64,000 nucleotides of DNA from Candidatus Thorarchaeota archaeon (GTDB taxonomy: Archaea; Asgardarchaeota; Thorarchaeia; Thorarchaeales; Thorarchaeaceae). This document shows positions 1,262 through 22,588 of this stretch, piece after piece (position 1 is the first letter of the stretch; each line of letters starts with the position of its first letter). The stretch covers positions 15,788 through 79,787 of the forward strand of contig JAOUFI010000003.1 in assembly GCA_029858305.1 (NCBI GenBank), given 5' to 3'. The notes beneath the pieces were generated by a model. That model saw nothing but the letters and a program-made list of their open reading frames with translations, ran no database searches and was not told where the DNA came from. Position numbers and translations under genes: made by a program.

Positions 1262-3334
1262 TTAATTTTCAACAGCTAGTTCCTCAGAGTCTTCAGGAAT
1301 GTCTTCATAGAGATCCTTCTCTTTTCCCTTAAAAGCCCTAAGAAGGGCCTGAGTTTCAATTCCAAACATTGGAAGCATTGCTGAGATCATCAAGAATGCA
1401 CCCAGCCAAACGAAAGACACGAGAGGAAGTATTTTTGTATGAACTGTCACTTGGTATATGTTTGGTGCAACGAGTGTAAAACCAGTGACTGCGATGAATA
1501 TATCTCGAAATGCGTTTGTCTGCAGGTATACTTGGTGAGTTATCATGTTCCAATCAGGATTGCCCGTGATTACAGCATAGCCTATTCCTACTATTATACT
1601 ATTATTTGAACTATCTATTTCAATAACCTGTAATGTCACAACCATATTGAAATCTCTCTCATTCACCCAGTATTGTAAATTGATGTCAGTCACTTGAATG
1701 TAGGTGCCTGGCGCAATCTCTTGAACACTGTTTTCTACAAAACCAGCATTACTTTCATACACGACGTGCTCGCTCATGAAGACACCTAGAAGTAGTATGA
1801 TAAGTCCAAGGTGAAGCATTAGACGACCTATTTCACGAGTACTCACAATCTTGTCCTTTCCTATCATCTGCCTGACGAATGCAATTACAAGAAATGCAAT
1901 TGCTCCGACCGCAGGCAACACAAGTAGGTTAGCTGGCCAGAAGTTCGTGGGCAAAGGTCCAGCTCCACCAAACACTGAAAGACCTGCCATTATGCCACCA
2001 ATGGTGAATAGAGAAAGCATAATGATTAGTCGTACACGGTTGTTCAGAAATCTAGATTTCAAGCAGAAGAATGCTGAACCTACAAGAAACACACATGCAG
2101 CATAGAATCCATATTGAAAGAACTCAATTCCTATTCCAATTTGATTGTCTGCTAGATTGGCAGGATCAAGAATTGCCATGCCCAAATTGAAAACCGCTGG
2201 ATATGCGACACCAACTGTGGATGTTGCTGCTACTATGAGCAGACCGATGAAAGCTGTTTTGATTGAGAGTAATCGAATATCTTTCTCCTTGAAAAAGCCA
2301 AATACTTCTTCAGTTTCATCATCAGACATATCACGATAACCAGAATATGTAGTTACAAGCGATCCAAGTATCAAGGTGAAAAGAAGCGTCGCAAGCATGG
2401 TCCAGCTCACGATGGAAATTCCAAAACCATGGACAGAATTCAGAATTCCACTCCTTGTAACCCATGTTGCGAAAATAACGGTGACATAAGCCATGACAAG
2501 AAATGAGTCACGTAAGACATCATTCTTCCTGAAAATAGGTCTTGCATGATAATATGCAGTTAATAGTAGCCATGGTATTAGTGATGTTGTTTCGACCGGG
2601 TCCCATGCCCAATAGCCACCCCATCCCAAGACAATATAAGCCCAATACCCACCAATCGCGATACCAGCTGAGAGCATCAACCAAGCAAAGACTGTTGTGA
2701 AGCGCACATAGGCATTGATCACTGGAATTGGCTCCTTATTACGCTCCTCGCTGCGAAGGGTGAATCCCGCAATCTTTATTGAAAAAGGCACTAAAATCAA
2801 TGCATATGCAATGAATATAATCGGTGGATGAATCACGTTCCAGATAGTGGAAAGTAGTGGATTTAGCCCATGTCCATCCGACGGAACTATTCCTTCGATT
2901 AATCTAAAGGGATCAGCTGCTAATGCATTCACAGCAACAAGGACAGATGAGACCACCATGATAATAGCTGCTCGGTATACGAGCTTATCATCTTCGTATC
3001 CTCGACTTAGTAGTCTAAATCCAAAGTACAGAATGAATGATAGAAATGTCCAAAAGATGAGCGACCCTGATTGTCCAGCCCACAAAGCCGAGATTTTCAA
3101 CAAAAGACTTGCCTCGATATTTGTTACTTGGGTAACATATTCGTATTGAAACTGATTTAGGAAAATCATTGTGCCCATCCATAGCAGAGTTCCTGTTGCA
3201 GCTATAAAACCAATAAAGGAAGCAATGATTGAATACCGTTCATAGTTCTCAATTTTTGGACCCACCACCAGAATGAGGGCATCCAAAATTCCTGCTACAA
3301 TCGTAGCAATTAGTAATATTGTACCAATATCCAT
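1262..3334 (-). CDS. ccmF: Cytochrome c heme lyase CcmF (System I)
   Basis: Polytopic membrane protein with WAGQSGS, GLNPLL..IHPP, WGGYWAWDPVE (WWD motif), SVHGF and HLG motifs. Confidence 0.93.
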   Translation of the reverse strand: MDIGTILLIATIVAGILDALILVVGPKIENYERYSIIASFIGFIAATGTLLWMGTMIFLNQFQYEYVTQVTNIEASLLLKISALWAGQSGSLIFWTFLSFILYFGFRLLSRGYEDDKLVYRAAIIMVVSSVLVAVNALAADPFRLIEGIVPSDGHGLNPLLSTIWNVIHPPIIFIAYALILVPFSIKIAGFTLRSEERNKEPIPVINAYVRFTTVFAWLMLSAGIAIGGYWAYIVLGWGGYWAWDPVETTSLIPWLLLTAYYHARPIFRKNDVLRDSFLVMAYVTVIFATWVTRSGILNSVHGFGISIVSWTMLATLLFTLILGSLVTTYSGYRDMSDDETEEVFGFFKEKDIRLLSIKTAFIGLLIVAATSTVGVAYPAVFNLGMAILDPANLADNQIGIGIEFFQYGFYAACVFLVGSAFFCLKSRFLNNRVRLIIMLSLFTIGGIMAGLSVFGGAGPLPTNFWPANLLVLPAVGAIAFLVIAFVRQMIGKDKIVSTREIGRLMLHLGLIILLLGVFMSEHVVYESNAGFVENSVQEIAPGTYIQVTDINLQYWVNERDFNMVVTLQVIEIDSSNNSIIVGIGYAVITGNPDWNMITHQVYLQTNAFRDIFIAVTGFTLVAPNIYQVTVHTKILPLVSFVWLGAFLMISAMLPMFGIETQALLRAFKGKEKDLYEDIPEDSEELAVEN

Positions 3335-3355
3335 AGTAGTTTCACCTGAGCAATC

Positions 3356-5530
3356 TTATCTCGTTCTACTTGATCCTCGCCGCCTCGCTCTTCTTTTTGC
3401 GTCTTTCTTTCCTTCGCGTTGGGCTTCTCTATATCTTCCCCTCTTCCTCTGAACATAGATATAGCCCACACCCGGTGCAGATACGAGCCCTAGTGTTGTA
3501 ACAATCTGAAAAGCTGTCCATGGTGATATATAGAAAACGGGTCCAATTACTGTGAGTATATAGAGCCTGCTTTCACCGACATTACCAGACTCATCCATCA
3601 CCAGAAAGAAGAATGCTATTTGATCATTTGCGTTGAATTGTCCAAGTCCAGTGCGCCATATTATTATCTCATCTTCAATCCCTATTGGCGTCATATTTTT
3701 GACTATATATGAGCCTCCATTCAGTTTCCACCAAATCTCACAAGAATTCGTATGGCTTTGTACTGGAAACTCGTAGGTTTCTATGTCTATTATAATATCA
3801 TCACCTGCTCGGACATCACCAGTAGGATAGATGGCGCGAAGCTCGACTGTAGGGGGAAATGTGTCAGTACGTACAATGAAATAGTAAATCCCAGCAATGA
3901 AAACACGACCTGTTGTATCATTGGCAAAGACCTCGAAATTCACTTGAGTGCTATCCTCGAAAGATTCAATCGAATTGTTGTAGACTCCTCCAATCTGTGG
4001 ATTTGCCAATAAAGGAAGAATTCCTCGCGTCTCAACACCACCTAAGTTCATTGTATAATTGACAAATACAGTGTCTATGCCATCAGCATCAAGTGCACTT
4101 ACAGAAAAATCAACATTATCCTGAGGCCGAGGATTTGTTGGCGATATCCTGACACGACTGACAATGGGTAGCCCGTAGCCCCATATGCGTTCCAAACCAA
4201 CTATAGCTTGGGCTTGCACCGCAGTATAATGAATTTCCCATTCGGGAGAAAAGACCTGCCATTCCTGGTTACTATTAGCTAGAAAACCCTCATGGTCATA
4301 GTCCCACAGCCAATTCAAAACAAGCTCTAGAGTATCAACAATCAGTCTAATAACATAGATTGAATCGCTTACTTCATACAAATCCTCAAGTGCCGTTGTC
4401 ATCTGGAACTGAATCTCAGTATACTTGTAGTACTTCACATCTTCATCTTCGAGGGGATCATACGGAACACCATCAACCGTTTCTGTATACCAACCACCAT
4501 TCGGGCCGTCCCAGTTATTGGTGAGGAGCACTTCAAAGATCTGGTTAGCCGCAGCAAGATATGTCGCGTTTCCGGTTACATTGTATCCATTTACTAGTGC
4601 TCTAATCGCCATCGCATTAAGGTCAGTTACGATTGAATGCCCGACGCTAGCTCCAGCAGGCACAACAACAGTCCCGCCGCTACGATCTACTACCAGCTTT
4701 ATGCCCATTAACTCCATTTCATAGTAGTACTTCATATGAAGTAACATGAATGACATTGCGCTATCTGCCATATCAACAAGTGTTGCATTTCCTAACGAAA
4801 AACCAGCATCATAGAGGACCGCGGCTCCAAGAGCAAGGTGATCAAGTCTTTTTCCGTCATTTGGATATGCTTCATCAAAGGATGAAGACACATTCAATGA
4901 ACCATTTCTCATTGTATAGTAAAAGAAACCTCCGTAGATTGGATCATAGAGCATATCGGCAAGACAACTCACAGCACTCGCCTTTTCATCTGTGAAATCA
5001 AGAGACGAGTTTGTAGACTCTGCAATTTCAAGAGCCCAATAGGCATATGCTTGGACTCCTGGTCTCTTTGTTTGCCTTACTTCAATTCCTGAGAATTCAT
5101 TGACATAATAACCGGAATATATAGGATCCATGAAGGTGCTGACCATTCTATTTGCTGCCCTACTCATCGCAATTCGGTAGGTTTCATTGTTTAAGACTTG
5201 GTACGCTTTTGATAGAGCGGATATTGCCCAGTAGTAGCTGGCAAGACTAGTCTCCTCAAGAGGACCTATCGTTTGATTGGCACCGCCATCATGAAAGACT
5301 CTTCCTGTTGTCACATTCATGTGATGATTAATCATAATATCGGCAGTAACCTCTAAATAATCACGGTATGAAGATATGTTGTACTCTGGTTCTTGCGATA
5401 ATACTATTGACCTTGCGCTTTGATTGATATCCAATCTATACTCAGGAGTATCAGCTAGATTTGCACCCTGAGCTGGTGCGTTCAACATTAAAGTGGCTAA
5501 TATTATCGTGACGATGATTATTTTCTTCAT
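3356..5530 (-). CDS. Secreted, C-terminally anchored protein: AGE/GH76-like (alpha/alpha)6 barrel plus Ig-like domains
   Basis: Signal peptide MKKIIIVT (ATG 5530; ORF track starts at 5563), repeated DPIYGGF / WDGPNGGW helical-barrel motifs, beta-rich C-terminal part, TM helix and basic tail. Confidence 0.55.
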   Translation of the reverse strand: MKKIIIVTIILATLMLNAPAQGANLADTPEYRLDINQSARSIVLSQEPEYNISSYRDYLEVTADIMINHHMNVTTGRVFHDGGANQTIGPLEETSLASYYWAISALSKAYQVLNNETYRIAMSRAANRMVSTFMDPIYSGYYVNEFSGIEVRQTKRPGVQAYAYWALEIAESTNSSLDFTDEKASAVSCLADMLYDPIYGGFFYYTMRNGSLNVSSSFDEAYPNDGKRLDHLALGAAVLYDAGFSLGNATLVDMADSAMSFMLLHMKYYYEMELMGIKLVVDRSGGTVVVPAGASVGHSIVTDLNAMAIRALVNGYNVTGNATYLAAANQIFEVLLTNNWDGPNGGWYTETVDGVPYDPLEDEDVKYYKYTEIQFQMTTALEDLYEVSDSIYVIRLIVDTLELVLNWLWDYDHEGFLANSNQEWQVFSPEWEIHYTAVQAQAIVGLERIWGYGLPIVSRVRISPTNPRPQDNVDFSVSALDADGIDTVFVNYTMNLGGVETRGILPLLANPQIGGVYNNSIESFEDSTQVNFEVFANDTTGRVFIAGIYYFIVRTDTFPPTVELRAIYPTGDVRAGDDIIIDIETYEFPVQSHTNSCEIWWKLNGGSYIVKNMTPIGIEDEIIIWRTGLGQFNANDQIAFFFLVMDESGNVGESRLYILTVIGPVFYISPWTAFQIVTTLGLVSAPGVGYIYVQRKRGRYREAQREGKKDAKRRARRRGSSRTR

Positions 5531-5614
5531 TCTTTTTCTTTCCTTGTGAAATGTTTCGCGCAATTGCGATGTGCTTTTAAAATTCGGGTTGTGGCTGTAT
5601 CGGATTGCCTAGAG

Positions 5615-5686: not shown

Positions 5687-7060
5687 CTATCGACGTCTGC
5701 CAACCAATACTCCTAGGAGCAAGCCAACAAGAATACCACCAGCGGCTCCACCAACAATAATCAGAGTGTCTGCGCTAAATCCAGCAGGTGCTGGTAGATT
5801 CTCATAGTAGTATGCCTTAGCATCTAGGAGATCTCTAAACGCAGAATTGATCGCATCAAATGTCTCCATTGGATCGTGGAAACCAGATGAACCATCATAG
5901 CCGTAATAGCCAACAGTGGTTGAAGCAGCGTCAATCTCATCTTGCACATAGTTGGCAAGAGTGATATTTGCGCCAGCTGTCGCATTGTAAGCTGCTACTG
6001 CTGTTTCGAGGGCTGATGCTTCAGCTTCGAAATCTGCTACGAGGGCATCGTATGATGACATAATCTCTTCTAGTTGGTTGATAGCCCACGCTTCTTGTCC
6101 TTCATGGCACTCAGGTGCCTGACCACAGGCGTCTTCTGGGAGAACAGCAAAGGTATGGTTCATTTCAGGTCCATGTGAACCTTGTACAAAACCATGACAA
6201 TCTGTACACTCAACAATGCCGGTCAAGTCATGTGCGCCACCCGTCCATACATTGATGGTCGTGTGACGGGCTGAATTACCGTGGCAGAGACCACAGAGTT
6301 CTGTGGAATTCTCAGCCCATATCTGAGCTGGGTTCACTACCTGTGCGTCATGGATAGCGTGACATGCGGGACAAGTGATAGCGTTGTAGTTGCCTTCGGG
6401 ATCAAGGTCATCGTCTTCACCGAAGAAGCCGTTGTAACCGAGGAATCCCTCAGCTGACATGCAGTGCATACAGTCTGATCCTGCATGGCTACTTGTTCTT
6501 AGATCTGTAAGTGAGTTGGCATGAGCCGATTCGGTGTAACCTTCGAGGCCACCGTGCCCTTCATGGATGTGACAAGAGGCACAAACACTACCATTTACTG
6601 AGTAGTATGGTGTGGATGTGTCATGACATGTCAGACAGTTGGTTCCAAATCCATCATGTGTATATGGATAGTCCGTGGCGTTACGCTCCGGAGTCCAACC
6701 AATTGCATGACACTGAGCACATGTCGCGTTCCAAGCCAAATAGGTTCGTTCGCGAGCACCATTGACCGTGACGTTGCCTGATGTTTCATTATAGTATATT
6801 AGGTAACCTGAGTGGGTGGTCATATTCCAATATTCCCATGTCTGGTTATGACATTCACCTGTCAGGCATGAAACACCATTTTCTTGGTCAGGGGTTGCGA
6901 GTTCATGCGCCTCACGTACTCTGTCAACGGATAATGTGACAGGTATTCCAGATCCCGTTGGTCCTAGGAGAATGGCGAAACCGATTAGGCAGAGGAACAG
7001 GTAATAACCCGCTACCATCCGCTTATTGACCCCAGGGGTCTCTTCAGTGTAGTACACCAT
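5687..7060 (-). CDS. Membrane-anchored multiheme c-type cytochrome (c552/NrfA-HAO-like C-terminus)
   Basis: Six CxxCH (CAQCH, CLTCH, CASCH, CPACH, CGLCH, CTDCH) plus CLTGECH, CGQAPECH and CMHCM. C-terminal helical region with DGSSGFHDP. N- and C-terminal hydrophobic helices. Confidence 0.9.
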   Translation of the reverse strand: MVYYTEETPGVNKRMVAGYYLFLCLIGFAILLGPTGSGIPVTLSVDRVREAHELATPDQENGVSCLTGECHNQTWEYWNMTTHSGYLIYYNETSGNVTVNGARERTYLAWNATCAQCHAIGWTPERNATDYPYTHDGFGTNCLTCHDTSTPYYSVNGSVCASCHIHEGHGGLEGYTESAHANSLTDLRTSSHAGSDCMHCMSAEGFLGYNGFFGEDDDLDPEGNYNAITCPACHAIHDAQVVNPAQIWAENSTELCGLCHGNSARHTTINVWTGGAHDLTGIVECTDCHGFVQGSHGPEMNHTFAVLPEDACGQAPECHEGQEAWAINQLEEIMSSYDALVADFEAEASALETAVAAYNATAGANITLANYVQDEIDAASTTVGYYGYDGSSGFHDPMETFDAINSAFRDLLDAKAYYYENLPAPAGFSADTLIIVGGAAGGILVGLLLGVLVGRRR

Positions 7061-7420
7061 TGGTTTTCACCAAACTCTAAGTTTAGGGTTTGTAACTTCC
7101 CGACGTATCGCAATAAAAAGATGTTCCTTCTAAGGGTATATTAACTATAGATTTTCTTACAAGTTGTAATATTTTGGTTTCAAAATGGTATATAAATTAT
7201 TATCACGCAAAATAAAAAATGCGACTTTAGATATTCTCAGTTACAAAAATGACTGTATTTTGCTTATTATAACAGTCAAATTGAAATCATTTAGTGTTTC
7301 AGTAGGATATATAGATGTATGTTCCGTAACATTTTAAGCAGGGTCGATTACTGACGGAACCCAATAACAAGGAGATATTTCTCGGATAAAACCGAGAATA
7401 TACGATTCGGTGGCCACCAT
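7061..7420. promoter_or_regulatory. AT-rich divergent promoter region with several palindromes
   Basis: TTACAA-G-TTGTAA (7157-7169), ATGTT-CCGT-AACAT (7319-7332), TTCTCGG-N6-CCGAGAA (7379-7398), TATA-like TATAAA near 7191. Confidence 0.55.
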
Positions 7421-8617
7421 ATGAAACGTAAAGTCAGAATTGGACTTGTTCTAGTTGCGGCAATAGTCATTATTATGCTTGCAGCAGGCAATGCCTTTGC
7501 TCATAGCGAATACGAAGTAGACTGTTCAACATGCCACGATGTTTCATCAGGCATGTCAATAACCACAGTATCGACAATAAACACAGGCCCAGGAGAAACT
7601 TTTCAGGTTGACGTTGTTGCGACTGGGTTGGCTCAAGATGTCTTTGTGCTACGCATACCGACTGATGTGGCCGATAATGACCAATTCACAATAAATGTGC
7701 CAGCGAACACAGAGAATCCAGGACTTGTTGAAGACAATGATGCACTAGACTTGGATTCGAACAACAATGGAATTCATGCAATCTACAATATTACAGCTCC
7801 CGCATTTTCTGGAACATACACACTAATCATCTGGGCAGCTCAACATACTGACAATGGAATCAGTAGATCAATAACTGTAAATGTGATTGAGGGAGGTCCA
7901 GGTCCGTCAATTGGAGCACCATCAACAACGCCACAAGTTCCACTTGCGAACGAAGAATTCACTGTCACGGTTACTATTTCATCCTCAGATACTATAACCT
8001 ATGTCAGACTGCAGTATAGTATTGATGGTGGGATTAATTGGCTGAATGTTACAATGTCTGAGTCAGGTGGTTTATATTCTGGTACAATACCCGGATTACC
8101 GAATAATCAGGAAGTGCACTGGCGAATCGTGGCAGCTGATTCTTCTGGAGAGAGAGTTAGTGCTACCTTAACATTCACTGTCGGCGTAATTCCGATAGAG
8201 CCTATAGAGATTCCCCAATTTCATTATGGATGGTTGCTAGGGGCGCCAGCTTTGGTTATTGCCTACATTGGCACGGCTCTCGAGTATTATGATGAAGAGC
8301 GATTCACGAGAATCCATGGTATGATGCTAGGCATCGCTTATGTATTAACATCCATTAACGTTGTAAGTCTAGTAATGGAACCTGCAGGCGTTTGGGCCGC
8401 GATGAATCCTGTCTATCTGTTCGATCTGAGTAACATGCTCATATTCATGCATGCTTGGCATATCTGGCTTGGCATAATCAGCATGGTTCTGGGCACTCTT
8501 GCACTCATAACACATCTTGGAGGGTGGAAGACATGCAATCTTGGATTACCAGCAGTTGTGCTATGGACTATTCTGGGAATAATGGGCTTCTATCTAGGAG
8601 AGGTATTTGTTCCGTGA
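7421..8617 (+). CDS. Exported mono-heme c protein with Ig-like domains fused to a His-rich 4-TM (cytochrome b-like) domain
   Basis: Signal peptide ending AFA, CSTCH immediately after it, beta-rich middle, four C-terminal TM helices with QFH, RIHG, MHAWH and ITH. Confidence 0.6.
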   Translation: MKRKVRIGLVLVAAIVIIMLAAGNAFAHSEYEVDCSTCHDVSSGMSITTVSTINTGPGETFQVDVVATGLAQDVFVLRIPTDVADNDQFTINVPANTENPGLVEDNDALDLDSNNNGIHAIYNITAPAFSGTYTLIIWAAQHTDNGISRSITVNVIEGGPGPSIGAPSTTPQVPLANEEFTVTVTISSSDTITYVRLQYSIDGGINWLNVTMSESGGLYSGTIPGLPNNQEVHWRIVAADSSGERVSATLTFTVGVIPIEPIEIPQFHYGWLLGAPALVIAYIGTALEYYDEERFTRIHGMMLGIAYVLTSINVVSLVMEPAGVWAAMNPVYLFDLSNMLIFMHAWHIWLGIISMVLGTLALITHLGGWKTCNLGLPAVVLWTILGIMGFYLGEVFVP

Positions 8618-13885: not shown

Positions 13886-15603
13886 AAATCAATGAACTCC
13901 AAATTGGTGACATCGTTGGGGCTGACAATGTATCCACGACTCCAGAAACTTGCATGATATATTCAAAAGATGTGACAAGTCTGCCTGATCTAGCTCATCA
14001 AATTGTGAGTCCGAGATTTGATGTGGTGACTCAGCCTGTGGATGTGCTATCACTTCAAAATCTAATCATCTATGCCATAGAGAACGGGATACCTATTGTA
14101 CCTCGGGGGAATGGCACCTCTGGCTGGGGTGGGGCAATTCCCACCAGAGGAGGTCTTTGTATCTCTCTTTCAGCAATGTCGGGAATTTTGTATTTTAACG
14201 AATTTGAGTCTGCTGTGACAGTGGAAACTGGAATTACTTGGAGAGATCTGTTGGCATTCTTGGAACGACTTGGGTTTACATTGCCGGTTTACCCATCAAG
14301 TGCCACTGCAGCTACAGTAGGGGGTTTTGTCGCCAGTGGAGGTCTTGGAATAGGCTCAACTCGTAATGGAGACATTCTGAAGCAGGTTATTGGAATCGAA
14401 GCCATCTTACCAAATGGGAAAATTGTCAGATTAGGTAGATTATTGTTGGATTCGAAAACTGATCCACTCAGGGAGAAAGTTGAGGAAGGCAACTCCTGGT
14501 TAAGTGAGAAGCTATCTGATGCTGGACTTGGCTCTCCAGAACAAGAAACCAAGCTTTTCACTGGGACATATGGCACACTTGGCATCATAACTAAAGTTAC
14601 ACTCAAGACAATACCCAACCTCCAGCTCATCCCCTTTTCATGCTCATTTGATCGTATGACTGACCTAGTAAGAGCAGCTGATAGAATACTCTCTGAGGTC
14701 AAACCATACTACATGAGATTTCTTGCAGATAATTACACTTCTAAATTAAGAGCCTTGAGTGAATATGAAAATGAGAGTGGAAAGTATATTCTCACAGGAG
14801 CTCTTCTTGATACTATCTACCAAAATGAGGATAACATTGAGATAATCAAGACTGTAACAAACGAGGAAAAAGGATATGTACTAGATGATAAGCGATCATG
14901 GTTTTATTGGTCTGAAAGGCTCTATCCTTTGAGAATCAAGCGACATGGACCAAGCCTTGTTCCTGCAGAAATGCTCGCGCCTATGAACATGCTTCCAGAA
15001 ATACTTGAAAAGACAAAGGCAGAACTTCGAAATTCAAAGGTAGCAATTGAGGGGACACTAAGCAACGATGGCACAACATCATTCATGGTCTGGATTTTGG
15101 ATGATGAGAGAAAAAAAGTTTCATTCACCATTGGCTGGTACAGATCTTTTCAGATTGCATCACTCGCTGAAAGGTTCGGAGGGCTCCCATATGCAGTAGG
15201 GCTTTGGAACGGGAGGCATGCAAGAAAATTCTATGGAAATGACTCTTATAAAAATCTCAAAGTAATGAAGAAGAAACTTGATCCATCTAACATAATGAAT
15301 CCGCTGAAGGTCTTTGGAGGTAGAGTTACGATTGGTCGTGAATCAATGCTCCTCGGATTTCTATTGGGATTTATTGTAACAATGATTGGAGGATGGTTAT
15401 TGCCAGGATTACTTAATCTTGATTGGCTGAATCAATTTCTAAGCTTGAGTCTGGTACAGTTCTTATATTTCCCTAATCTGTGGCTTCTTGGACTAGCTGG
15501 AGGTTTGATAGCAGTCATGATAATCCGATTCATGAGATTAAGCCAGGCACTCGCAATTGGAATTCCAATTCTTAGGATTCTGAGTAAACTGCTTCGACGA
15601 TAG
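13882..15603 (+). CDS. FAD-linked oxidoreductase, GlcD/VAO family, with C-terminal TM helices, copy 2
   Basis: VPRGNGTSGWGG, YPSSATAATVGG, GTLGIITK, DPSNIMNP, hydrophobic C-tail. The ORF track starts at 13954. An in-frame CTG at 13882, after GGAGGTGG and overlapping the upstream TGA, restores a DIVG segment shared with copy 3. Confidence 0.85.
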   Translation: MKINELQIGDIVGADNVSTTPETCMIYSKDVTSLPDLAHQIVSPRFDVVTQPVDVLSLQNLIIYAIENGIPIVPRGNGTSGWGGAIPTRGGLCISLSAMSGILYFNEFESAVTVETGITWRDLLAFLERLGFTLPVYPSSATAATVGGFVASGGLGIGSTRNGDILKQVIGIEAILPNGKIVRLGRLLLDSKTDPLREKVEEGNSWLSEKLSDAGLGSPEQETKLFTGTYGTLGIITKVTLKTIPNLQLIPFSCSFDRMTDLVRAADRILSEVKPYYMRFLADNYTSKLRALSEYENESGKYILTGALLDTIYQNEDNIEIIKTVTNEEKGYVLDDKRSWFYWSERLYPLRIKRHGPSLVPAEMLAPMNMLPEILEKTKAELRNSKVAIEGTLSNDGTTSFMVWILDDERKKVSFTIGWYRSFQIASLAERFGGLPYAVGLWNGRHARKFYGNDSYKNLKVMKKKLDPSNIMNPLKVFGGRVTIGRESMLLGFLLGFIVTMIGGWLLPGLLNLDWLNQFLSLSLVQFLYFPNLWLLGLAGGLIAVMIIRFMRLSQALAIGIPILRILSKLLRR

Positions 15604-15826
15604 ATTCAAACCATCATGTTTGCCTTAGCAAAAGATTGAAGTAAACAATGTAGTTTGCATCTCTAATCCTAGATGTATATTTGTATATTGAAGTTTCAAA
15701 TGATATCCAAGAATGTAGTTTAACCAATATGCTCAAATATGAGACATATGTTCCAAAACGAAACTTAGCCAAGGTATTTCAACTAGGTAAAGGTACAAAA
15801 AGAAACCAAAATAGGGTGCAAATGGA

Positions 15827-16423
15827 ATGAAACGAAACCGTGTATCGAGAGTCGCCGTCGCCATTGGCTTCTTGCTATTATTAGTTGCTACTGCTGCGGG
15901 ATCAGTCGGAGCTTTTCCAAGCCAGACAAACGAATGTGGAACAACTGGCTGTCATGATACGCTCGGAACTTTGACTATTGCCTCTAATTCGACGAGCATG
16001 AGTGCAACAACAGGAGAACCTTTTGCTCTTCTTCTAGATGCAGGAAATGGTGCGGATTGGATAGCTATCAGGAATGGGTGGGCGGATAATTCTCAATTCT
16101 TGATTTCTGTAGAGGAGGTAGAGGATGGTTCTGCGAATGACACAAATACAGCCTCAGGAGCAATATCTGTCGAGGTAACATTCACACCATTATCCTCTGG
16201 TGATTTGACAATTCGTATTTGGACAGCTGCTGGAGGCGATTTAGCATCTTCATTAGATATCACTGTCACAGTGACAGGTGAATCAATAACAACAACAACA
16301 CCACCGCCCAACAATGAAGCAGATTTACTTTGGACCTGGAGAATAATGATGATAATACTACCTGTTTCAGTAGGTGTAGTTCTTCTGATTCTAGGTTTTA
16401 CTGTATTCAAGAGGAGATCATGA
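15827..16423 (+). CDS. Exported, membrane-anchored putative mono-heme protein (CX4CH), paralog of the N-terminal part of 7421..8617
   Basis: Signal peptide, CGTTGCHD, ADNSQF..VED segment matching ADNDQF..VED of 7421..8617, Thr/Pro linker, C-terminal TM and KRRS. Confidence 0.55.
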   Translation: MKRNRVSRVAVAIGFLLLLVATAAGSVGAFPSQTNECGTTGCHDTLGTLTIASNSTSMSATTGEPFALLLDAGNGADWIAIRNGWADNSQFLISVEEVEDGSANDTNTASGAISVEVTFTPLSSGDLTIRIWTAAGGDLASSLDITVTVTGESITTTTPPPNNEADLLWTWRIMMIILPVSVGVVLLILGFTVFKRRS

Positions 16424-16437
16424 AGTAGGTGATATGA

Positions 16438-16941
16438 ATGGCATTACATCCAGTTTTTGTTCACTTCCACACTGGAATCCTAGCAGCTGCGGCCGCTCTA
16501 GCATTGATCAGTCTAATCTTGCGATTCTTGTTTCGGGATAACATTCGCACTCCTGGGACACGGCTAGCTCGACTGTTTCATTATATTGATGTGTTTATCT
16601 TCATAGGTAGCATAATCGGCTTCATCGGATTAATTGCAGGTATGATGACAGGATTCATGGAACCAGATTATTCTCTAGCAACACTTGAAGCATTACCGGC
16701 TATGAGGTTCAAAATTCTCTGGTCCATAGTATGTGTTGAAATATACCTCTTCCTAATGGTTGTCCGAGCTAGACTAGGAGATCGGGTTTGGGTAGGCACG
16801 GCTAGCTCCCTAATCTACGGTATTCTTGTTATAGTCGGTGGTCTGCTCATAATCATTATTGCTGCACTTGGAGGAATTGCAGTATATGGAGAATCCATAC
16901 TATCACCCATCCTTGATTGGTTGGGACTACCATGGCCATGA
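16438..16941 (+). CDS. 4-TM membrane protein, DUF2231-like (HPxxVHF)
   Basis: N-terminal LHPVFVHFH, four hydrophobic helices, LGGIAVYG near the C-terminus. Confidence 0.6.
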   Translation: MALHPVFVHFHTGILAAAAALALISLILRFLFRDNIRTPGTRLARLFHYIDVFIFIGSIIGFIGLIAGMMTGFMEPDYSLATLEALPAMRFKILWSIVCVEIYLFLMVVRARLGDRVWVGTASSLIYGILVIVGGLLIIIIAALGGIAVYGESILSPILDWLGLPWP

Positions 16942-16956
16942 TAAGGAGATTCAGTC

Positions 16957-18135
16957 ATGACAAAACCCTATGAACCTCTCAAAATTGAGGGACTTGATAT
17001 TGAACCAACAGTGTGTGCGAGATGTGGTTTCTGCACCTTCGTGTGCCCAGCATATCTTGACACACTTTGGGATTCTCAATCACCGAGAGGAAAGCTATAC
17101 CAACTGAGAGACCTTATTAAAAATAAGAAGAAAATCCCTGCTGACTTTGCAGCCAGGATATTCAATTGTACCTTGTGTGGAGCATGCCAGGAAATTTGTC
17201 AGACAAACATACCTCTTTTGAGATTCTGGCAACTTACGAGAGAAGAGATTGGCAATCTTGAAGAATGGCCAGAAATCGTGAATTATATCGATACCGCCTT
17301 ACAAGAGACCCAAAACATCATGGAAATGGACCAGGATGACAGAACTCTCTGGACCGATATGGTTGATGACCTTGTAGAAAAGAGAACTGGAATCAAAGCT
17401 GAAGTTGCGTATTTTGCAGGCTGCAACATTTCATTCAAAGGCACCCTCGCTCATCTTGGTGAGAATACGATAAAAGTAATGGATGCAGCAGGTGTCGATT
17501 TCACAATACTTGGCAGCGAGGAGTTCTGCTGCGGCAATCCATATTTTGTAGCTGGTGGCTTCGATAAAGCTCGAGAGCTTGCAATGCATAATCTAGCAGC
17601 GCTCAAGGAATTAGGCGTGAAGACGGTTGTATTCAACTGCCCTGGATGTCATCGAGCCTTTGCAGAGGAATATCCCCATCTACTCGGAAAGGATTCGGTA
17701 GAGGGATTAGAGTTTCTGCCTTTCTCCGAGTTTACCCTAAGACTTCTCAAAGAAGGAAAAATCAAGTTCACAAAGAATTACCCTCACACAGTCGCATGGC
17801 ATGATCCATGTGAACTTGGACGTCATCAGAATATCTACAATCCTGCTCGAGAAGTCCTTAATGCAATTCCCGGACTCAAACTGCGGGAGATGAAGCATGC
17901 AAGAAACAAGGCAAGATGCTGTGGCGGTGGAGGACTGCTGAAGGGGACTAATCCAATGATGTCGGTGAGAATATCGGGTCGGAGAGTTGAAGAAGCGGAA
18001 AAGACCGGAGCAGAATTCATAGCTAGCGAATGTCCATCGTGTACGATGTCATTCAATGACGGAATTGAGCACAAGAATTCCAAAATGAAATTCAAGGATT
18101 TGTCACAGATTGTCGTGGAAGCTCTTGGATTATAG
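16957..18135 (+). CDS. Fe-S oxidoreductase, HdrD/GlcF-like, copy 3
   Basis: CARCGFCTFVCP, CTLCGACQEIC, FCCG..CPGC, WHDPCELG..RCCGGGG..ECPSC. Confidence 0.9.
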   Translation: MTKPYEPLKIEGLDIEPTVCARCGFCTFVCPAYLDTLWDSQSPRGKLYQLRDLIKNKKKIPADFAARIFNCTLCGACQEICQTNIPLLRFWQLTREEIGNLEEWPEIVNYIDTALQETQNIMEMDQDDRTLWTDMVDDLVEKRTGIKAEVAYFAGCNISFKGTLAHLGENTIKVMDAAGVDFTILGSEEFCCGNPYFVAGGFDKARELAMHNLAALKELGVKTVVFNCPGCHRAFAEEYPHLLGKDSVEGLEFLPFSEFTLRLLKEGKIKFTKNYPHTVAWHDPCELGRHQNIYNPAREVLNAIPGLKLREMKHARNKARCCGGGGLLKGTNPMMSVRISGRRVEEAEKTGAEFIASECPSCTMSFNDGIEHKNSKMKFKDLSQIVVEALGL

Positions 18136-18146
18136 GTGGTGAAGAG

Positions 18147-19868
18147 ATGTTACGAAAACAACATTTCCAGAAACTTGCAGATATTGTGGGTGAAGATTAT
18201 TTCTCTGCTGAAGGATATATGACTCACCTCTACTCACACGACATAGCAGCGCTCCCAGGAATTGTAAACGATGTTCTCAATCCCCATGCGGAAGCAATAG
18301 CGCAACCAACTACCTCTGAAGTTGTATCAAATCTGCTGAAATACTGTAAAGAGAATAATATCCAGGTTGTCCCGCGAGGACATGGTACATCTGGATATGG
18401 TGGAGCGTTGCCTACCAAGGGTGGCCTGGTTGTTGAAATGACCAGGATGAATGAGATATACAATATTGACAAAGGTAGCATGACAATTGAGGTAGGTGCC
18501 GGTATCATTTGGGGGAAACTGCTAGAACTCCTCGAGGATGAAGGCCTCTCTGCGGCTGCGTATCCATCAAGTGCACCTTCTAGTACTGTAGGCGGCTGGA
18601 TTGCAGCTGGGGGCTCAGGCATCGGCAGTACAAAATACGGGGGAATCAGGGAGCAAGTAGTAGAATTGGAAGTTGTCTTGCCTGATGGAGAGATCATAAG
18701 GACAAGTCAATCAGAAGATTCTGTATTCAATGAAGGAAAAACAAAACCATTCTTTGGTGGTGATGACTCATTCTATTGGGAATCTGAAGAAAGCTCTGCC
18801 CCCAATAAAGAGTCTACTTCATTATTTGTAGATAGCAATGGCACCTTGGGAATAATAACGAAGGTGGTAATGAAGGTCATTCCGCTTCGCAAAATTAAGC
18901 CTTTAACAATATCATTCCCGAATAAAGAACAGACAATGGGTGCAATGCAGGCTATTCTTCGCATCACACAGCCTTTCTACCTTCACTTCATAACAGACGA
19001 ATTCTTTGGTATGTTGAAGGAGGTAGGAAAAGCCCCTGATGTGGCGGGTGAATGGTTAGTTCTCTGTGCTTTAGAGGGAACAGATGAAGAGAATGACGAG
19101 GTTGCAGGAAAAATCGCTGAAGCAATGGCGATGTATCATGGGACAGTTGAGTCAGACGAGATAGGACATCATGAATGGGATGAACGGTTCTATCCCATGA
19201 GAATTAAAAGACTGGGTCCAAGTCTTGCACCTTCCGAGGTCTATGTACCCTTGGAGAGAATGGTCGATTTCATCGACCACTGCTACAAGCACTTCAAGGG
19301 GGAGAGAATGGCGATGGAAGGAGCTGTCAATCACCGAAATGAAGTTGCGGTACTCACTTGGTTCTTGGATGATGAACGCCGGAGAATTCCATTTTTGTTT
19401 GGATGGTATCGTTCTCTAGATGTCATCAACATTGGCATAAAGAATGGAGGACGTGCCTATTCCATAGGTATGTGGAATGTAGCTCATTCACGCAAGTTCT
19501 ACGGAAAAGAAGACTACACAAAGATGGCAAAACTCAAACAGAGAACAGATTCTAAGAATTACCTCAATTCGCATAAAGTATTCCCAGGACCGCTATATCT
19601 GAGTACAAGAATAGGATTACTAATCATGTTTGCAGCCGCATTCGTGGTGCCTATCGTAATCATGTTTGCATGGTGGTTAGCTCCAAGTGTAGTTGCGGCT
19701 TATGTTCCATGGGTCGTTGTCAATGACATTGCTAGCTTCTTGCTATGGTTCATAGTCGGACTGGGAGTCGGATTTGTGGTCCAAGAATTTGCCAATCTCA
19801 TACCGATATCGGTCGTACTTTCGATTGGATTACCATTCCTCAGATTGGGAAGGAAGATATTTCACTAA
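18147..19868 (+). CDS. FAD-linked oxidoreductase, GlcD/VAO family, with C-terminal TM helices, copy 3
   Basis: VPRGHGTSGYGG, YPSSAPSSTVGG, GTLGIITK, hydrophobic C-tail. Close paralog of 13882..15603. Confidence 0.85.
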   Translation: MLRKQHFQKLADIVGEDYFSAEGYMTHLYSHDIAALPGIVNDVLNPHAEAIAQPTTSEVVSNLLKYCKENNIQVVPRGHGTSGYGGALPTKGGLVVEMTRMNEIYNIDKGSMTIEVGAGIIWGKLLELLEDEGLSAAAYPSSAPSSTVGGWIAAGGSGIGSTKYGGIREQVVELEVVLPDGEIIRTSQSEDSVFNEGKTKPFFGGDDSFYWESEESSAPNKESTSLFVDSNGTLGIITKVVMKVIPLRKIKPLTISFPNKEQTMGAMQAILRITQPFYLHFITDEFFGMLKEVGKAPDVAGEWLVLCALEGTDEENDEVAGKIAEAMAMYHGTVESDEIGHHEWDERFYPMRIKRLGPSLAPSEVYVPLERMVDFIDHCYKHFKGERMAMEGAVNHRNEVAVLTWFLDDERRRIPFLFGWYRSLDVINIGIKNGGRAYSIGMWNVAHSRKFYGKEDYTKMAKLKQRTDSKNYLNSHKVFPGPLYLSTRIGLLIMFAAAFVVPIVIMFAWWLAPSVVAAYVPWVVVNDIASFLLWFIVGLGVGFVVQEFANLIPISVVLSIGLPFLRLGRKIFH

Positions 19869-19946
19869 TACATATCTGATGAATCCGAATCATGTAGACA
19901 GACTAAAAAGATAGTCAGTGGGACATCAGAACAGAAGATGATGTAG

Positions 19947-20627
19947 ATGTCGGCAAAAGCAGTCGTTGTGAGAAATCTCACTCGAAGATACGGTTACAGA
20001 GTGGCATTAAAAGATATATCACTAGATTTCTCAGAGAATGGGATTCAAGGATTATTTGGAGCTAATGGAGCAGGAAAAACAACACTAATGCGAATCATAT
20101 CAACGCTGCTACGCCCTCATAGTGGAACAATCTCCGTTATGGGATTTGATCCGCAAGAAGAACCAGAAGAAGTGAAGAAGTATCTTGGTTTGGTGGGTGA
20201 CAAAACGCTTCTATACGATGAACTATCAGGCATTGAAAATCTTCGATTCTATTCCAAGCTCTATGGATTGCATCGCGACTTCTTTGAAACTCAAGTTGAG
20301 GAATTATCTCAACGTTTTGCCATCAAAACCTGGCTTGAGGAACCTGTGAAGAATTTATCAACAGGGCTCAAGAAAAGACTGGATATTGTTCGAAGCTTGA
20401 TTCACAATCCTATGCTACTACTTCTGGATGAGCCATTCAGCGGACTAGATAAAGATACTACTGAGGATTTTTGGGACTACCTCAATGAACATAGAAACAC
20501 AAGAACAACAATTGTGACAACTCACAATTTAGCCCTTGGTGCTAATTTGTGCGACGAATTTGTCACTCTCAGGAAAGGAGTAGTAATTAATCAAGGTCCA
20601 ATTTCTCAGTTTGATCAGACACTCTGA
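19947..20627 (+). CDS. ccmA: Heme exporter ABC ATPase CcmA
   Basis: GANGAGKTT, LSTG, LLLLDEP. Directly upstream of ccmB and ccmC. Confidence 0.85.
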   Translation: MSAKAVVVRNLTRRYGYRVALKDISLDFSENGIQGLFGANGAGKTTLMRIISTLLRPHSGTISVMGFDPQEEPEEVKKYLGLVGDKTLLYDELSGIENLRFYSKLYGLHRDFFETQVEELSQRFAIKTWLEEPVKNLSTGLKKRLDIVRSLIHNPMLLLLDEPFSGLDKDTTEDFWDYLNEHRNTRTTIVTTHNLALGANLCDEFVTLRKGVVINQGPISQFDQTL

Positions 20628-20636
20628 GGTGATATT

Positions 20637-21317
20637 ATGACGTCAGGCCTAGGCGCAGCATTAGCAATCGCAAAGAAAGACATCATCATTCAGTTACGTA
20701 AGAAGTTTGAAGCATTCTCAATGTTCCTATTTGCCCTCATCGCAGTCCTCGCATATTCCTTTGCGTTGGTTTCACAAGGATCTATACCAGCAGATGTAGG
20801 TAGTGCAATGCTGTGGGTCATCATTTTCTTCATGGGGATGTTTGGCTTCGCTCCCATTTTCCTCTCCGAGTCAGAAACTGGCACATTACGCGGTCTCGCT
20901 ACTGCGCCGATTCCCGCATGGGCGGTCTATGTTGGTAAGGTGATCTATGGTTTTGTTCTGATGGGAATAGTTGAGGTCTTTCTGGTACCGATTATTTCTA
21001 TACTGTTTGGTTTTTCTTTTCTAAATGATATTCCACTTACTGTTGCTGTACTCGTAGTTGGAACACTAGATTTGTCAGCAGTTGGTTCAATGGCCTCGGC
21101 TCTAGTAATGCCTTCAGAGGCAAAAGCAACAGTATTCCCCCTTGTCTATTTCCCTACTGCAACGTCAGGTCTAATTCTCCTCATTGAAATCACCAAGATC
21201 ATTGTATTGGGTCCAGGCGTTGTGCCGATTATGTTACTATTTGAAATACTTCTTGCTCATCTGATTGCAATGCTGACACTATCGGCTTCTGTGTTTCACT
21301 TTGCACTTTCACCTTGA
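20637..21317 (+). CDS. ccmB: Heme exporter permease CcmB
   Basis: Six TM helices, KKDI..LR, E.ETGTL..L, VYVGK. Lies between ccmA and ccmC. Confidence 0.85.
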   Translation: MTSGLGAALAIAKKDIIIQLRKKFEAFSMFLFALIAVLAYSFALVSQGSIPADVGSAMLWVIIFFMGMFGFAPIFLSESETGTLRGLATAPIPAWAVYVGKVIYGFVLMGIVEVFLVPIISILFGFSFLNDIPLTVAVLVVGTLDLSAVGSMASALVMPSEAKATVFPLVYFPTATSGLILLIEITKIIVLGPGVVPIMLLFEILLAHLIAMLTLSASVFHFALSP

Positions 21318-21385
21318 ATGCGTGTCTTCAGCAAAACGTTCATATTGCAAGTAGTAGGGGAATCAGCAGTTCGAGTTGAAAAGCC

Positions 21386-22054
21386 GTGAGCAATACCAGA
21401 CTGATATTTCTCGCAGTAGCAGCAGTGATATCATTACTCTATGTCTACATGACATGGATCTTTTCCCCGCCAGATGCGATACTTGGAGAAAACGTTCGCA
21501 TTTTCTTCCAGCACATTGCACCCGCTCTTGTCGCATACGGATTATTTGGAGGGACGTTACTGTGCGGAGTGATGTATCTGTGGAAGGGAGATCTAAAATA
21601 TGACATCATCGGAGCAGTATCAATCAAACTTGGACTGTTGTTCACTACGATTACCCTATTGAGTGGAATGTTGTGGGCTAATGCAGCATGGCATTCACCT
21701 TGGAATTGGGATCCCCGCGAAACGACCACTCTCATCTTATGGATTGCATATGCATGTATTCTGGCATATCGAGCTTCTGTAACCGATAGGGAAGCGAGAG
21801 CTCAATTTGGTTCCATTTTCGGAATTGTCGCGTTCCCGATGGTGTTATTGAGCTATCTTTCAATTCGAATATGGAATACTCTTCATCCAATCGTAATTGA
21901 TGAATCTGGATTCCATATGGGAATCGAACACATGATGACTCTGTTCGTAGCTATGATTGCTGTCACAATGATTGCACTGATTATGGTCGAGCTAGCGTAC
22001 AAAGTTGATTCAGCATATGAAAAGTTGATGAGAATAAGAATGTCAAGGAGTTAA
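21386..22054 (+). CDS. ccmC: Heme chaperone-loading protein CcmC
   Basis: RIFFQH, GMLWANAAWHSPWNWDPRE (WWD motif), WNTLHP. Confidence 0.92.
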   Translation: MSNTRLIFLAVAAVISLLYVYMTWIFSPPDAILGENVRIFFQHIAPALVAYGLFGGTLLCGVMYLWKGDLKYDIIGAVSIKLGLLFTTITLLSGMLWANAAWHSPWNWDPRETTTLILWIAYACILAYRASVTDREARAQFGSIFGIVAFPMVLLSYLSIRIWNTLHPIVIDESGFHMGIEHMMTLFVAMIAVTMIALIMVELAYKVDSAYEKLMRIRMSRS

Positions 22055-22058
22055 GAAT

Positions 22059-22199
22059 ATGCAACAGTTTGAACTATTCATCGTAGCCACAATATTTTGG
22101 GGTGGTATTTTCATTTTCCTATTATACCTTCTAATGAGAATGGCTGGAATCGAGAAACAACTCAAAGTTGTAGAAGCACAGATCGATGGAGAACAATAG
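22059..22199 (+). CDS. ccmD: CcmD-like small membrane protein (46 aa)
   Basis: Manual translation MQQFELFIVATIFWGGIFIFLLYLLMRMAGIEKQLKVVEAQIDGEQ*: one TM helix plus a charged helix, exactly between ccmC and ccmE, preceded by GGAG. Below the ORF-track cutoff. Confidence 0.75.
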   Translation: MQQFELFIVATIFWGGIFIFLLYLLMRMAGIEKQLKVVEAQIDGEQ

Positions 22200-22201
22200 A
22201 A

Positions 22202-22588
22202 ATGAGAAAGAAAACTCGGATGGCACTTGTTGCAGTCATCTTGGTAGTTACTATTAGTATTGTCGGATATCAAATGTTGAATCTTTATGTCGACCCCTAC
22301 CTGAGTGTAGATGCCGTAGTCGAGCATCCTGAATCATTTATGGGTCGTACAATACAGGTCAAAGGAGAGCTTCAGGCAGGATCTCTGACCATTGGTCAAG
22401 ATAATGTGACATTAGTATTAGTGGGAGATAATCACACGATCATAGTGCTGTTGCTAGGTGAAGTTCCTGATATGGTGGATGGTCAAGATATTGTTGCGAT
22501 TGGTACGCTAGAATCAGCCACTCTCATAAGAGCAACTCAGATTCTAACTTCATGCCCAAGTAAGTACGAAGCCCCAACTACAACATAG
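22202..22588 (+). CDS. ccmE: Heme chaperone CcmE (CxxxY type)
   Basis: N-terminal anchor MRKKTRMALV, Y.SVD, IQVKG, C-terminal SCPSKYE. True start is ATG 22202, not 22097. Confidence 0.9.
   Translation: MRKKTRMALVAVILVVTISIVGYQMLNLYVDPYLSVDAVVEHPESFMGRTIQVKGELQAGSLTIGQDNVTLVLVGDNHTIIVLLLGEVPDMVDGQDIVAIGTLESATLIRATQILTSCPSKYEAPTTT

Follow-up and report, generated by a model that had tools for sequence, protein, structure and literature searches.

A block of about 22 kb in the genome of a thorarchaeotal archaeon unites flavin and iron–sulfur (FeS) enzymes, histidine-rich four-transmembrane (4-TM) modules, c-type cytochromes and the genes for cytochrome c maturation (ccm). Synteny, the co-occurrence of the heme/4-TM protein c398 with the maturation protein CcmE, and the empty site found in relatives without the block support the view that these constitute one conserved, co-inherited unit. 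The block occupies positions 1262-23220 of a 64,000-nucleotide stretch (hereinafter the window; GenBank assembly GCA_029858305.1, contig JAOUFI010000003.1, positions 15,788 to 79,787 of the forward strand), which is part of a 102,661-bp contig in an 88.9% complete metagenome-assembled genome (MAG) of 3.04 Mb (hereinafter G000). The NCBI labels of the homologues of c398 and of a second, DUF2231-like 4-TM protein are nearly all "Candidatus Thorarchaeota archaeon", in agreement with the Asgard origin that had been predicted from the window's sequence alone. We propose that the block probably specifies a single quinone-free system for transmembrane electron transfer through a chain of cofactors, and we lean, by a little, toward electrons flowing outward to an external acceptor via the multiheme cytochrome MHC457.

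As delineated using the list of open reading frames (ORFs), Pfam and NCBIfam searches and a motif/hydropathy script, the block consists of two divergent arms separated by a 360-bp spacer (Table 1). The plus arm comprises 15 same-strand genes (7421-22588) with intergenic gaps of mostly 3-20 nt, together with a 223-nt gap between GlcD2-TM and c198. The minus arm codes for CcmF, p735 and MHC457. An FMN reductase gene terminates the block and is followed by MutS, and the GC content is even throughout the region. Every element listed in the original prediction is present. Two conserved members, p735 and the FMN reductase, went unlisted there, and with the latter the block ends at 23220 instead of 22588. 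An alignment of the spacer from eight species has a mean column identity of 70% with long invariant runs. The heptamer TTGTAAC was considered as a regulator site and dropped: it occurs 14 times in the window, where 6.2 occurrences are expected, but only 2 of the 14 fall in the spacer.

The distribution of the block was traced in a set of 400 genomes of the phylum, in which f and g labels denote families and genera, with f1 being the window's own family. Orthologues of GlcD3-TM (E <1e-200) are found in 16 of 24 same-genus genomes, and in 16 further genomes from the phylum no match is better than 4e-33; about a third of the genus lacks the block. The gene order of the window recurs, as far as the contigs extend, in all 10 same-genus loci fetched and in all three loci from other genera (g19, g22 and g25), at 46-81% identity. 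At least five genera share this order, which is far more than chance would give. The FMN reductase adjoins ccmE or ccmF in all of these loci. In 7 of the 10 same-genus loci a fourth GlcD/HdrD pair precedes ccmA, and it comes with its own separate 136-aa copy of the c398-type 4-TM module. Full-length c398 orthologues (E <1e-100) are present in 35 of the 400 genomes, G000 included, all of them in genera g1, g16, g19, g22 and g25 of f1, and in none of the 314 genomes outside f1. Within f1, CcmE (PF03100) is restricted to the same five genera; none of the 30 genomes from the remaining eleven genera codes for it. Among the 86 f1 genomes, which are related and hence non-independent and many of whose assemblies are fragmented, 32 have both c398 and CcmE, 3 c398 only, 6 CcmE only and 45 neither.

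Five block-less genomes of the genus were searched for the corresponding junction. In all four from which it was fetched, GGR and MutS lie 0.25-1.1 kb apart, and no FMN reductase was detected at these empty sites. This indicates that the genes from CcmF through the FMN reductase are present or absent together. In families f18 and f33, genes for an MHC457-like protein, a p735-like protein, CcmF and other Ccm components are linked, with no GlcD or HdrD in the 20 kb fetched; hence the MHC457/p735/ccm part can stand alone.

A second, deeply diverged Asgard lineage offers a further view of the linkage. In family f9, CcmE is encoded a few kb from weak matches to the c398 domains, and at three loci a 280-343-aa protein joins the same 4-TM module to an Ig-like domain and also has an N-terminal motif and a signal peptide. 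The gene for this protein (hereinafter heme/Ig/4-TM) is followed by a GlcD-like and then an HdrD-like gene. Genes for a CcmF of 570 aa and for a large exported protein, as well as ccmA, B, E and C, lie beside them. When species-representative genomes were scanned with a pattern, 21 such loci emerged, labelled Promethearchaeota, Hodarchaeota or Hermodarchaeota. A GlcD-like gene follows the heme/Ig/4-TM gene in 21/21 and an HdrD-like gene in 20/21, the exception being a locus that ends at a contig edge, while CcmF lies within 5 kb in 19/21 and another ccm gene within 10 kb in 18/21. The identity to the thorarchaeotal proteins is 27-34% for the GlcD-like and 29-33% for the HdrD-like members, which makes the linkage of GlcD/HdrD to a heme protein an old one. 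As judged from these gene arrangements, nothing supports a probable cooperation of the flavoenzyme/FeS pair with the heme/4-TM protein more strongly than this unit does. The original prediction would have been undercut by GlcD/HdrD pairs that are mostly unlinked to cytochrome or ccm genes in relatives; instead, they are linked in 10/10, 3/3 and 21/21 loci.

The heme/Ig/4-TM proteins of the second lineage keep a "CH" about 10-15 residues past the signal peptide, with the upstream cysteine varying (L034:12605-13636, L036:17418-18284 and L038:18384-19226; proteins P0240-P0295). The forms are CxxCH, CxCH, Cx4-5CH and, most often, XXXCH with no such cysteine; as counted by eye, the last is seen in about 20 of the 62 clusters of the 4-TM family described below. 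The large exported proteins of these loci begin with a similar GHxSCH-type motif. In the second lineage these motifs point to a heme held by a single thioether bond, or else to a different cofactor with CH ligation.

The c398 protein of the block has a signal peptide and a CSTCH motif, followed by Ig/FN3-like ectodomains and four TM helices. In an alignment of 55 sequences C35, C38, H39, H268, H299, H344, H347 and H365 are invariant, as are the cytoplasmic loops YYxEE and GWKTxN. An AlphaFold2 (AF2) model (pLDDT 83.6) displays a signal helix, two β-sandwich domains and helices at 270-290, 292-318, 339-366 and 375-392; Foldseek searches with the whole model recover only Ig/FN3 tandem matches. 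With the ectodomain placed outside, the modeled helix boundaries put H268 and H344/H347 toward the outer face of the membrane, while H299 and H365 come to lie toward its inner face, an arrangement that would fit one or two bis-His hemes. H299, H344 and H347 are invariant in the fused, stand-alone and second-lineage forms of the module, and H268 is kept wherever the position is covered across these three architectures. A profile search found the family in only 62 clusters among 1.84e9 representatives, most of them proteins of 260-317 aa with the 4-TM module at the C-terminus. No known heme-protein fold could be assigned to the domain with Foldseek or VIA-align. An identification as DUF420, a protein-atlas lead scored at 0.76, was unconfirmed, with a Pfam E of 0.96 in one of five sequences.

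The second 4-TM protein of the block scores 20.1 bits against PF09990 (DUF2231), below the cut-off of 26.4, although several of its orthologues carry a precomputed PF09990 assignment. Its residues H4, H9, H11 and H48 are invariant. Searches for DUF2231 in the searchable open literature returned one unrelated paper only. Both His-containing 4-TM modules of the original prediction are thus present, but they are not homologous to each other, a relationship that we rejected on an hhalign probability of 0.07%. A predicted complex of HdrD1 and the c398 4-TM domain with two hemes and two [4Fe-4S] clusters (ipSAE 0.01 and 0.00, mark 0.32) is uninformative either way.

MHC457 contains six CxxCH motifs and a CLTGECH, with TM segments at both the N- and C-termini. 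Among eight same-genus orthologues, four have seven CxxCH and four have six CxxCH with one or two Cx4CH, and it is on the basis of these motif sets that we consider the protein a heptaheme cytochrome. A homologue from f18, 25% identical, has six CxxCH. MHC457 matches PF14522 (2.6e-9), and its residues 103-342 align with residues 177-438 of PDB 6i5b_A (E 5.3e-9 over 240 residues), a code that occurs in the OcwA structure paper (PMC6703420). Weak matches to NrfA entries of the PDB (E 0.02-0.12) are confined to residues 264-405. By these sequence relationships, MHC457 is a predicted member of the NrfA/c554/OcwA multiheme lineage. It is the only multiheme protein of G000, in which we found no credible c-type cytochrome outside the block.

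The monoheme protein c198 has a signal peptide, a CGTTGCH (Cx4CH) motif and a C-terminal TM segment. The position of the motif is kept in 12/12 orthologues, as Cx4CH in seven and CxxCH in five. The two exported monoheme proteins initially described are both present, the second with a variable motif. The c198 loci match residues 1-177 of c398 at 30-38% identity, and c198 is accordingly homologous to the N-terminal part of c398. In the AF2 model of p735 (pLDDT 75.1), an (α/α)6 barrel is followed by a pair of Ig-like domains and, at the C-terminus, by a TM helix. With Foldseek it matches N-acylglucosamine and cellobiose 2-epimerases (E 1.8e-12, TM-score by target 0.66-0.77), whereas the protein atlas yielded no useful lead for it. 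Its linkage to an MHC457-type cytochrome and CcmF holds in thorarchaeotal, f18 and f33 loci, i.e., in three Asgard families. Other p735-type proteins were seen at L049:6361-8361 and L044:7352-8527; the fold that accompanies the cytochrome is thus of an epimerase/glycosidase-like type.

All three GlcD-like proteins combine the FAD_binding_4 and FAD-oxidase_C domains (PF01565 at 4.8e-33 and PF02913 at 1.4e-9 in GlcD1; PF01565 at 3.3e-31 in GlcD2-TM and 2.6e-40 in GlcD3-TM). Their similarity to LctD, LDHD, glycolate oxidase and alkyl-DHAP synthase lies chiefly in the FAD domain. The PDB matches of GlcD1 are ADPS, LctD and LDHD, with the phmmer alignments again covering mainly this domain, and GlcD3-TM matches LctD (7qh2_C) at 3e-29. 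The three pairs with HdrD-like proteins were correctly predicted, but the C-terminal TM tails on two of the three GlcD-like proteins had been missed (TM segments at 460-537 in GlcD2-TM). Lacking any conserved His or Cys, these tails resemble simple anchors. The HdrD-like proteins match PF02754 at 6.1e-35 (HdrD1, in two stretches), 6.3e-30 (HdrD2) and 9.8e-35 (HdrD3), the last also matching PDB 9ojn_A at 3.4e-33. Each has exactly 18 cysteines, constituting two ferredoxin motifs (CxxCxxCxxxC) and two complete CCG motifs, and the pattern of HdrD1 is invariant in an alignment that includes the distant second lineage. The best NCBIfam match of HdrD1 and HdrD3 is TfrB, a thiol:fumarate reductase subunit, below the cut-off.

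The PDS/HpnE-like flavoenzyme (PF01593 1.9e-40; PDB 5mog 1.2e-17; TIGR03467 117.8 bits, below the cut-off of 283) is the most conserved gene of the block, with 89-92% identity within the genus. The FMN reductase (PF03358 5.8e-27, 94.6 bits against a cut-off of 24) conserves C49, C52, C55 and C61, a four-Cys motif that we take to resemble those of iron–sulfur flavoproteins. At G000:C148:4152-5516, upstream of the window, lies a gene for a 669-aa FAD-oxidase paralogue, which is present in nearly all same-genus genomes, including block-less ones, and is a GlcD-like enzyme not tied to cytochromes.

Among the maturation proteins, CcmB (PF03379 8.8e-20), CcmC (PF01578 1.1e-27), CcmE (PF03100 4.2e-12, 46.7 bits against a cut-off of 24.6) and CcmF (PF01578 7.6e-28) pass the Pfam cut-offs. 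CcmF also matches TIGR00353 (4.3e-54, below the cut-off), has a WGGYWAWDP motif, and its orthologues in relatives are 63-71% identical. CcmA is an ABC ATPase (PF00005) that scores 109.4 bits against TIGR01189 (cut-off 131.6). CcmE ends in SCPSKYE, and the C and Y of its CxxxY motif are invariant in 12 sequences, as expected of the CxxxY-type CcmE foreseen in the original prediction. Of the ccmABCDE set also named there, A, B, C and E are confirmed, while "ccmD" is a 46-aa ORF between ccmC and ccmE with copies 67-80% identical in relatives and no Pfam CcmD match in the four copies tested; by its position only, it is a possible archaeal CcmD analogue. CcmH and CcmI are lacking within the block, a genome-wide search for them not having been made.

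Two further properties of the host genomes bear on how such a system could operate. Profile searches of G000 gave no match for MqnA/D, NrfD, COX1 or cytochrome bd, and for MqnC only 19.7 bits. Similarly, no ALAD (PF00490) turned up in any of the 11 ccm-bearing Asgard genomes searched, namely G000, five thorarchaeotal genomes (one of them a single contig of 3.16 Mb), three of f9 and one each of f18 and f33 (labels G000, G002, G004, G014, G346, G355, G281, G292, G234, G110 and G399), and no HemC (porphobilinogen deaminase) in any of five. Control genomes gave the expected results in the ALAD, HemC, quinone and oxidase searches. Hence, the cytochrome-bearing Asgard archaea appear, by gene content, to be unable to make heme or tetrapyrroles; the heme must come from outside, and the description of the block as self-contained has to be abandoned.

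The constituents of the block can be read as a repeated unit of three parts: a cytoplasmic GlcD-type FAD dehydrogenase, predicted to be TM-tethered in two of three cases; an HdrD/GlcF-type protein with predicted sites for two [4Fe-4S] and two CCG clusters; and a His-rich, probably heme b-binding 4-TM module, which appears either fused to an outside monoheme-c/Ig ectodomain (c398) or encoded beside one (c198). An organic substrate, probably D-2-hydroxyacid-like, would be oxidized in the cytoplasm, with the electrons passing from FAD through the FeS clusters to the membrane heme, the surface monoheme and finally MHC457. The latter might act as the terminal reductase for an external acceptor, whether a partner cell, a soluble oxidant, a mineral or humics. 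Heme scavenged by the cell would be attached to the three cytochromes by the products of ccmABC(D)EF. The original prediction had envisaged a transmembrane wire: that its parts form one co-inherited unit is borne out, while we infer its cofactor chain, the binding of heme b, the physical complex, the direction, the substrate and the acceptor.

The claim that no characterized system has this layout was overstated, as the pairing of GlcD with GlcF-like proteins is known and the block shares its architectural principle with Tmc, Hmc, DsrMKJOP and HdrDE. According to the available text of 10.1101/2023.08.03.551783, these combine an HdrD-like CCG protein with a membrane heme module, and an outside cytochrome c in the cases of Tmc, Hmc and DsrJ. 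The similarity of the block's HdrD-like proteins to their counterparts is nevertheless below the NCBIfam cut-offs throughout (TmcB 112.3/735, DsrK 77.1/400 and HmcF 76.0/750 bits). Moreover, they have two CCG motifs, as in HdrD/GlcF, whereas TmcB, HmcF and DsrK have one in the same available text. Further, the membrane modules belong to an unassigned 4-TM family and a DUF2231-like one rather than to cytochrome b of the NarI/HdrE/DsrM type, the neighboring membrane proteins of the block showing no match to the NarI/HdrE-type family. The block also differs from these complexes in having a GlcD-type flavoenzyme as an obligatory neighbor and in that no quinone pathway was found in its genome.

With glycolate oxidase GlcDEF and the D-2-hydroxyacid dehydrogenases the block shares FAD_binding_4 and FAD-oxidase_C domains paired with a GlcF-type protein. 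Unlike GlcDEF, it has no identified GlcE, its proteins lie far below the GlcD and GlcF cut-offs, two of the enzymes are TM-tailed, and the partner is a heme/4-TM protein instead of the quinone pool. Electron transfer from a GlcD-family enzyme to cytochrome c has a precedent in the yeast D-lactate:cytochrome c oxidoreductase. Taken together, the block follows the principle of Tmc/Hmc/DsrMK/HdrDE joined to that of GlcDF, and is new in its components and its host lineage. For MHC457, the comparison is with OcwA of Thermincola potens, in the available text of PMC6703420 a cell-surface terminal reductase of the NrfA/c554 family. Both are, for MHC457 as predicted from sequence only, surface-exposed in hosts lacking an outer membrane, but MHC457 has seven heme motifs instead of nine, N- and C-terminal anchors and an archaeal host. 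The maturation genes parallel those of Methanosarcina acetivorans in comprising CcmA, B, C, E and F with a CxxxY CcmE; relative to the available text of PMC9084895, they differ in being clustered with their client cytochromes, as opposed to scattered over four loci, in having CcmF as a single 690-aa protein, where that of M. acetivorans is split, and in the conserved 46-aa TM ORF at the ccmD position, ccmD being stated there to be absent from archaeal genomes.

Several observations weigh against an outward-directed conduit of this kind. Energetically, the export of electrons from a cytoplasmic donor builds no membrane potential by itself. The GlcD-like proteins score far below the equivalog cut-off (TIGR00387: 129.8 bits for GlcD1, 108.0 and 144.1 for the other two, cut-off 567.9), making the substrate a guess. 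With respect to the membrane modules, no Pfam family could be assigned to the TM part of c398, and VIA-align relates its 4-TM domain to designed four-helix bundles and COX3 at a non-diagnostic Z of ~11-12 (11.7), which is under the threshold that the program itself sets for helical bundles. H365 is absent from the stand-alone and second-lineage forms, rendering the inner-face heme site uncertain. In the DUF2231-like protein three of the four invariant histidines cluster at the N-terminus of TM1, unlike in classical transmembrane bis-His proteins. The relatives compared are non-independent samples, and two of their loci depart from the common plan. The locus of G024, which is 99% complete (L042, G024:C297:8001-27772), keeps CcmF, c398, GlcD1 and HdrD1, but MHC457 is a 32-residue remnant, HdrD1 runs straight into MutS, the genes from the PDS-like flavoenzyme through the FMN reductase are gone, and no CcmE is found anywhere in the genome; this is a partly decayed, intermediate copy of the block. 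In G004 there is no DUF2231 gene between c198 and HdrD3, which may reflect a deletion or an assembly artefact; at this locus (L031, G004:C24, ~13457-15221) c198 is shortened (171 aa aligned) and HdrD3 aligns from residue 11. Expression is hinted at by contigs from RNA libraries, which cover MHC457 at ~93-98% likeness in two runs of a single study. One run adds short contigs of 97-99% likeness on GlcD1, HdrD1/PDS, PDS, the 4-TM gene and GlcD3-TM, and the other a contig on c398. These give a hint only, as they are contigs from a single study with DNA carry-over possible, though block parts without such cover do not count as silent. The missing ALAD and HemC are a further difficulty, and together with the decay in G024 and the absence of the block from part of the genus they would fit a relic locus whose cytochromes no longer work for want of heme. 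We consider this highly improbable: the ORFs and cofactor motifs are intact and constrained across five genera and the second lineage, several genes are covered by the RNA contigs, and among bacteria there are known cases of cytochrome use by heme auxotrophs.

The same complex might alternatively run inward, from an external donor such as reduced humics, Fe(II) or a partner cell to a cytoplasmic disulfide or organic acceptor. In this case, the noncubane CCG clusters or the flavoenzymes would reduce the acceptor, with proton consumption inside providing redox-loop energy conservation. This would be the energy-conserving direction, HpnE-like enzymes can act reductively, and the TfrB match of HdrD1 and HdrD3, albeit below the cut-off, points the same way. 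So does the completeness of both CCG motifs in all three HdrD-like proteins, since, in the available text of 10.1101/2023.08.03.551783, two such motifs make up the set with which HdrD/HdrB catalyze the reduction of disulfides. We nonetheless regard inward flow, including its energy-conserving variant, as unlikely: the characterized GlcD/VAO relatives (LctD, LDHD and glycolate oxidase) are dehydrogenases or oxidases, GlcF-type CCG proteins also accompany substrate-oxidizing GlcD, OcwA, the structural relative of MHC457, is a terminal reductase (PMC6703420, available text), and no candidate disulfide carrier was identified. Another alternative is that the parts are co-located but separate, with GlcD/HdrD being ordinary membrane-associated 2-hydroxyacid dehydrogenases on 4-TM anchors and the cytochromes and ccm genes having an unrelated role at the surface, for example in the detoxification of nitrite, peroxide or oxygen. 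Consistent with this, pairs of GlcD and GlcF-like proteins exist without cytochromes, most of the 18 GlcD-like matches in G000 lie outside the block, the f18 and f33 loci have the cytochrome, p735 and ccm parts by themselves, and soluble compounds too are reduced by OcwA-family cytochromes (PMC6703420, available text). Yet c398 and its second-lineage counterparts carry the heme-c ectodomain and the 4-TM module on one polypeptide, the heme/4-TM gene abuts GlcD/HdrD in all 21 distant loci, the invariant TM histidines and cytoplasmic loops of c398 are unexpected for a passive anchor, and the block is gained or lost whole. A separate function of the parts is accordingly quite improbable.

The usual picture of Thorarchaeia, and of most other Asgard archaea, is one of fermenters or acetogens shedding electrons as hydrogen or formate. 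An outward conduit, if real, would give some of them a direct electron outlet, with a bearing on how they partner with bacteria, and the specific genes make this question testable. In its full form, the proposal would be that Thorarchaeia and the second lineage (labelled Promethearchaeota, Hodarchaeota or Hermodarchaeota) transfer electrons to the outside through a conduit of their own that needs no quinones, is built from a hitherto undescribed heme-c/Ig/4-TM protein family and GlcD/HdrD-type enzymes, and is supplied with scavenged heme, attached in the second lineage mostly by one cysteine (XXXCH); we offer it tentatively, as a rather doubtful whole. Were it true, fermentative Asgard archaea could pass electrons directly to minerals or bacterial partners, which would provide a molecular basis for electron-donating syntrophy in models of eukaryote origin. 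Our search of the open literature, with subscription journals and supplements outside its scope, found no description of Asgard ccm genes or c-type cytochromes, and the available text of PMC9723726 reports no multiheme cytochromes in Helarchaeota MAGs. The block further raises the questions of a new family of membrane heme modules, of a possible archaeal CcmD analogue, and of archaea that have cytochromes but apparently no heme synthesis.

Table 1. Genes and other features of the block, with positions in the window.
Feature	Position	Strand	Basis or remarks
CcmF/NrfE-family heme lyase	1262-3334	-	690 aa, ~13 TM segments, PF01578
p735, exported (α/α)6-barrel protein	3356-5563	-	735 aa; likely start M12 (5530)
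MHC457, membrane-anchored heptaheme c-type cytochrome	5687-7060	-	6 CxxCH + Cx4CH
Divergent intergenic region between the arms	7061-7420		blocks invariant in 8 species
c398, signal peptide + CSTCH + Ig/FN3-like ectodomains + 4-TM	7421-8617	+	alignment, AF2
GlcD1, soluble FAD-linked oxidase/dehydrogenase	8607-10088	+	PF01565, PF02913
HdrD1, HdrD/GlcF-type FeS/CCG protein	10098-11222	+	PF02754, 18 Cys
PDS/HpnE-like amine-oxidase-fold flavoenzyme	11242-12585	+	PF01593
HdrD2, HdrD/GlcF-type FeS/CCG protein	12677-13885	+	PF02754, 18 Cys
GlcD2-TM, FAD-linked oxidase with C-terminal TM tail	13954-15603	+	PF01565
c198, exported monoheme protein (Cx4CH), C-terminal TM anchor	15827-16423	+	motif
4-TM DUF2231-like protein	16438-16941	+	sub-threshold PF09990, invariant His
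HdrD3, HdrD/GlcF-type FeS/CCG protein	16957-18135	+	PF02754, 18 Cys
GlcD3-TM, FAD-linked oxidase with C-terminal TM tail	18147-19868	+	PF01565
ccmA	19947-20627	+	PF00005, TIGR01189
ccmB	20637-21317	+	PF03379
ccmC	21386-22054	+	PF01578
46-aa single-TM ORF at the ccmD position	22059-22199	+	position only
CcmE, C-terminal CPSKY (CxxxY)	22202-22588	+	PF03100
FMN reductase-family flavoprotein	22594-23220	-	PF03358

Beyond the block, the window codes for an aldo/keto reductase fused to a 4Fe-4S dicluster domain (27751-28893), adjoined by an MFS transporter (26229-27632), and, about 8 kb downstream of the block, for a heliorhodopsin (31085-31906; PF18761, E 4.8e-90).

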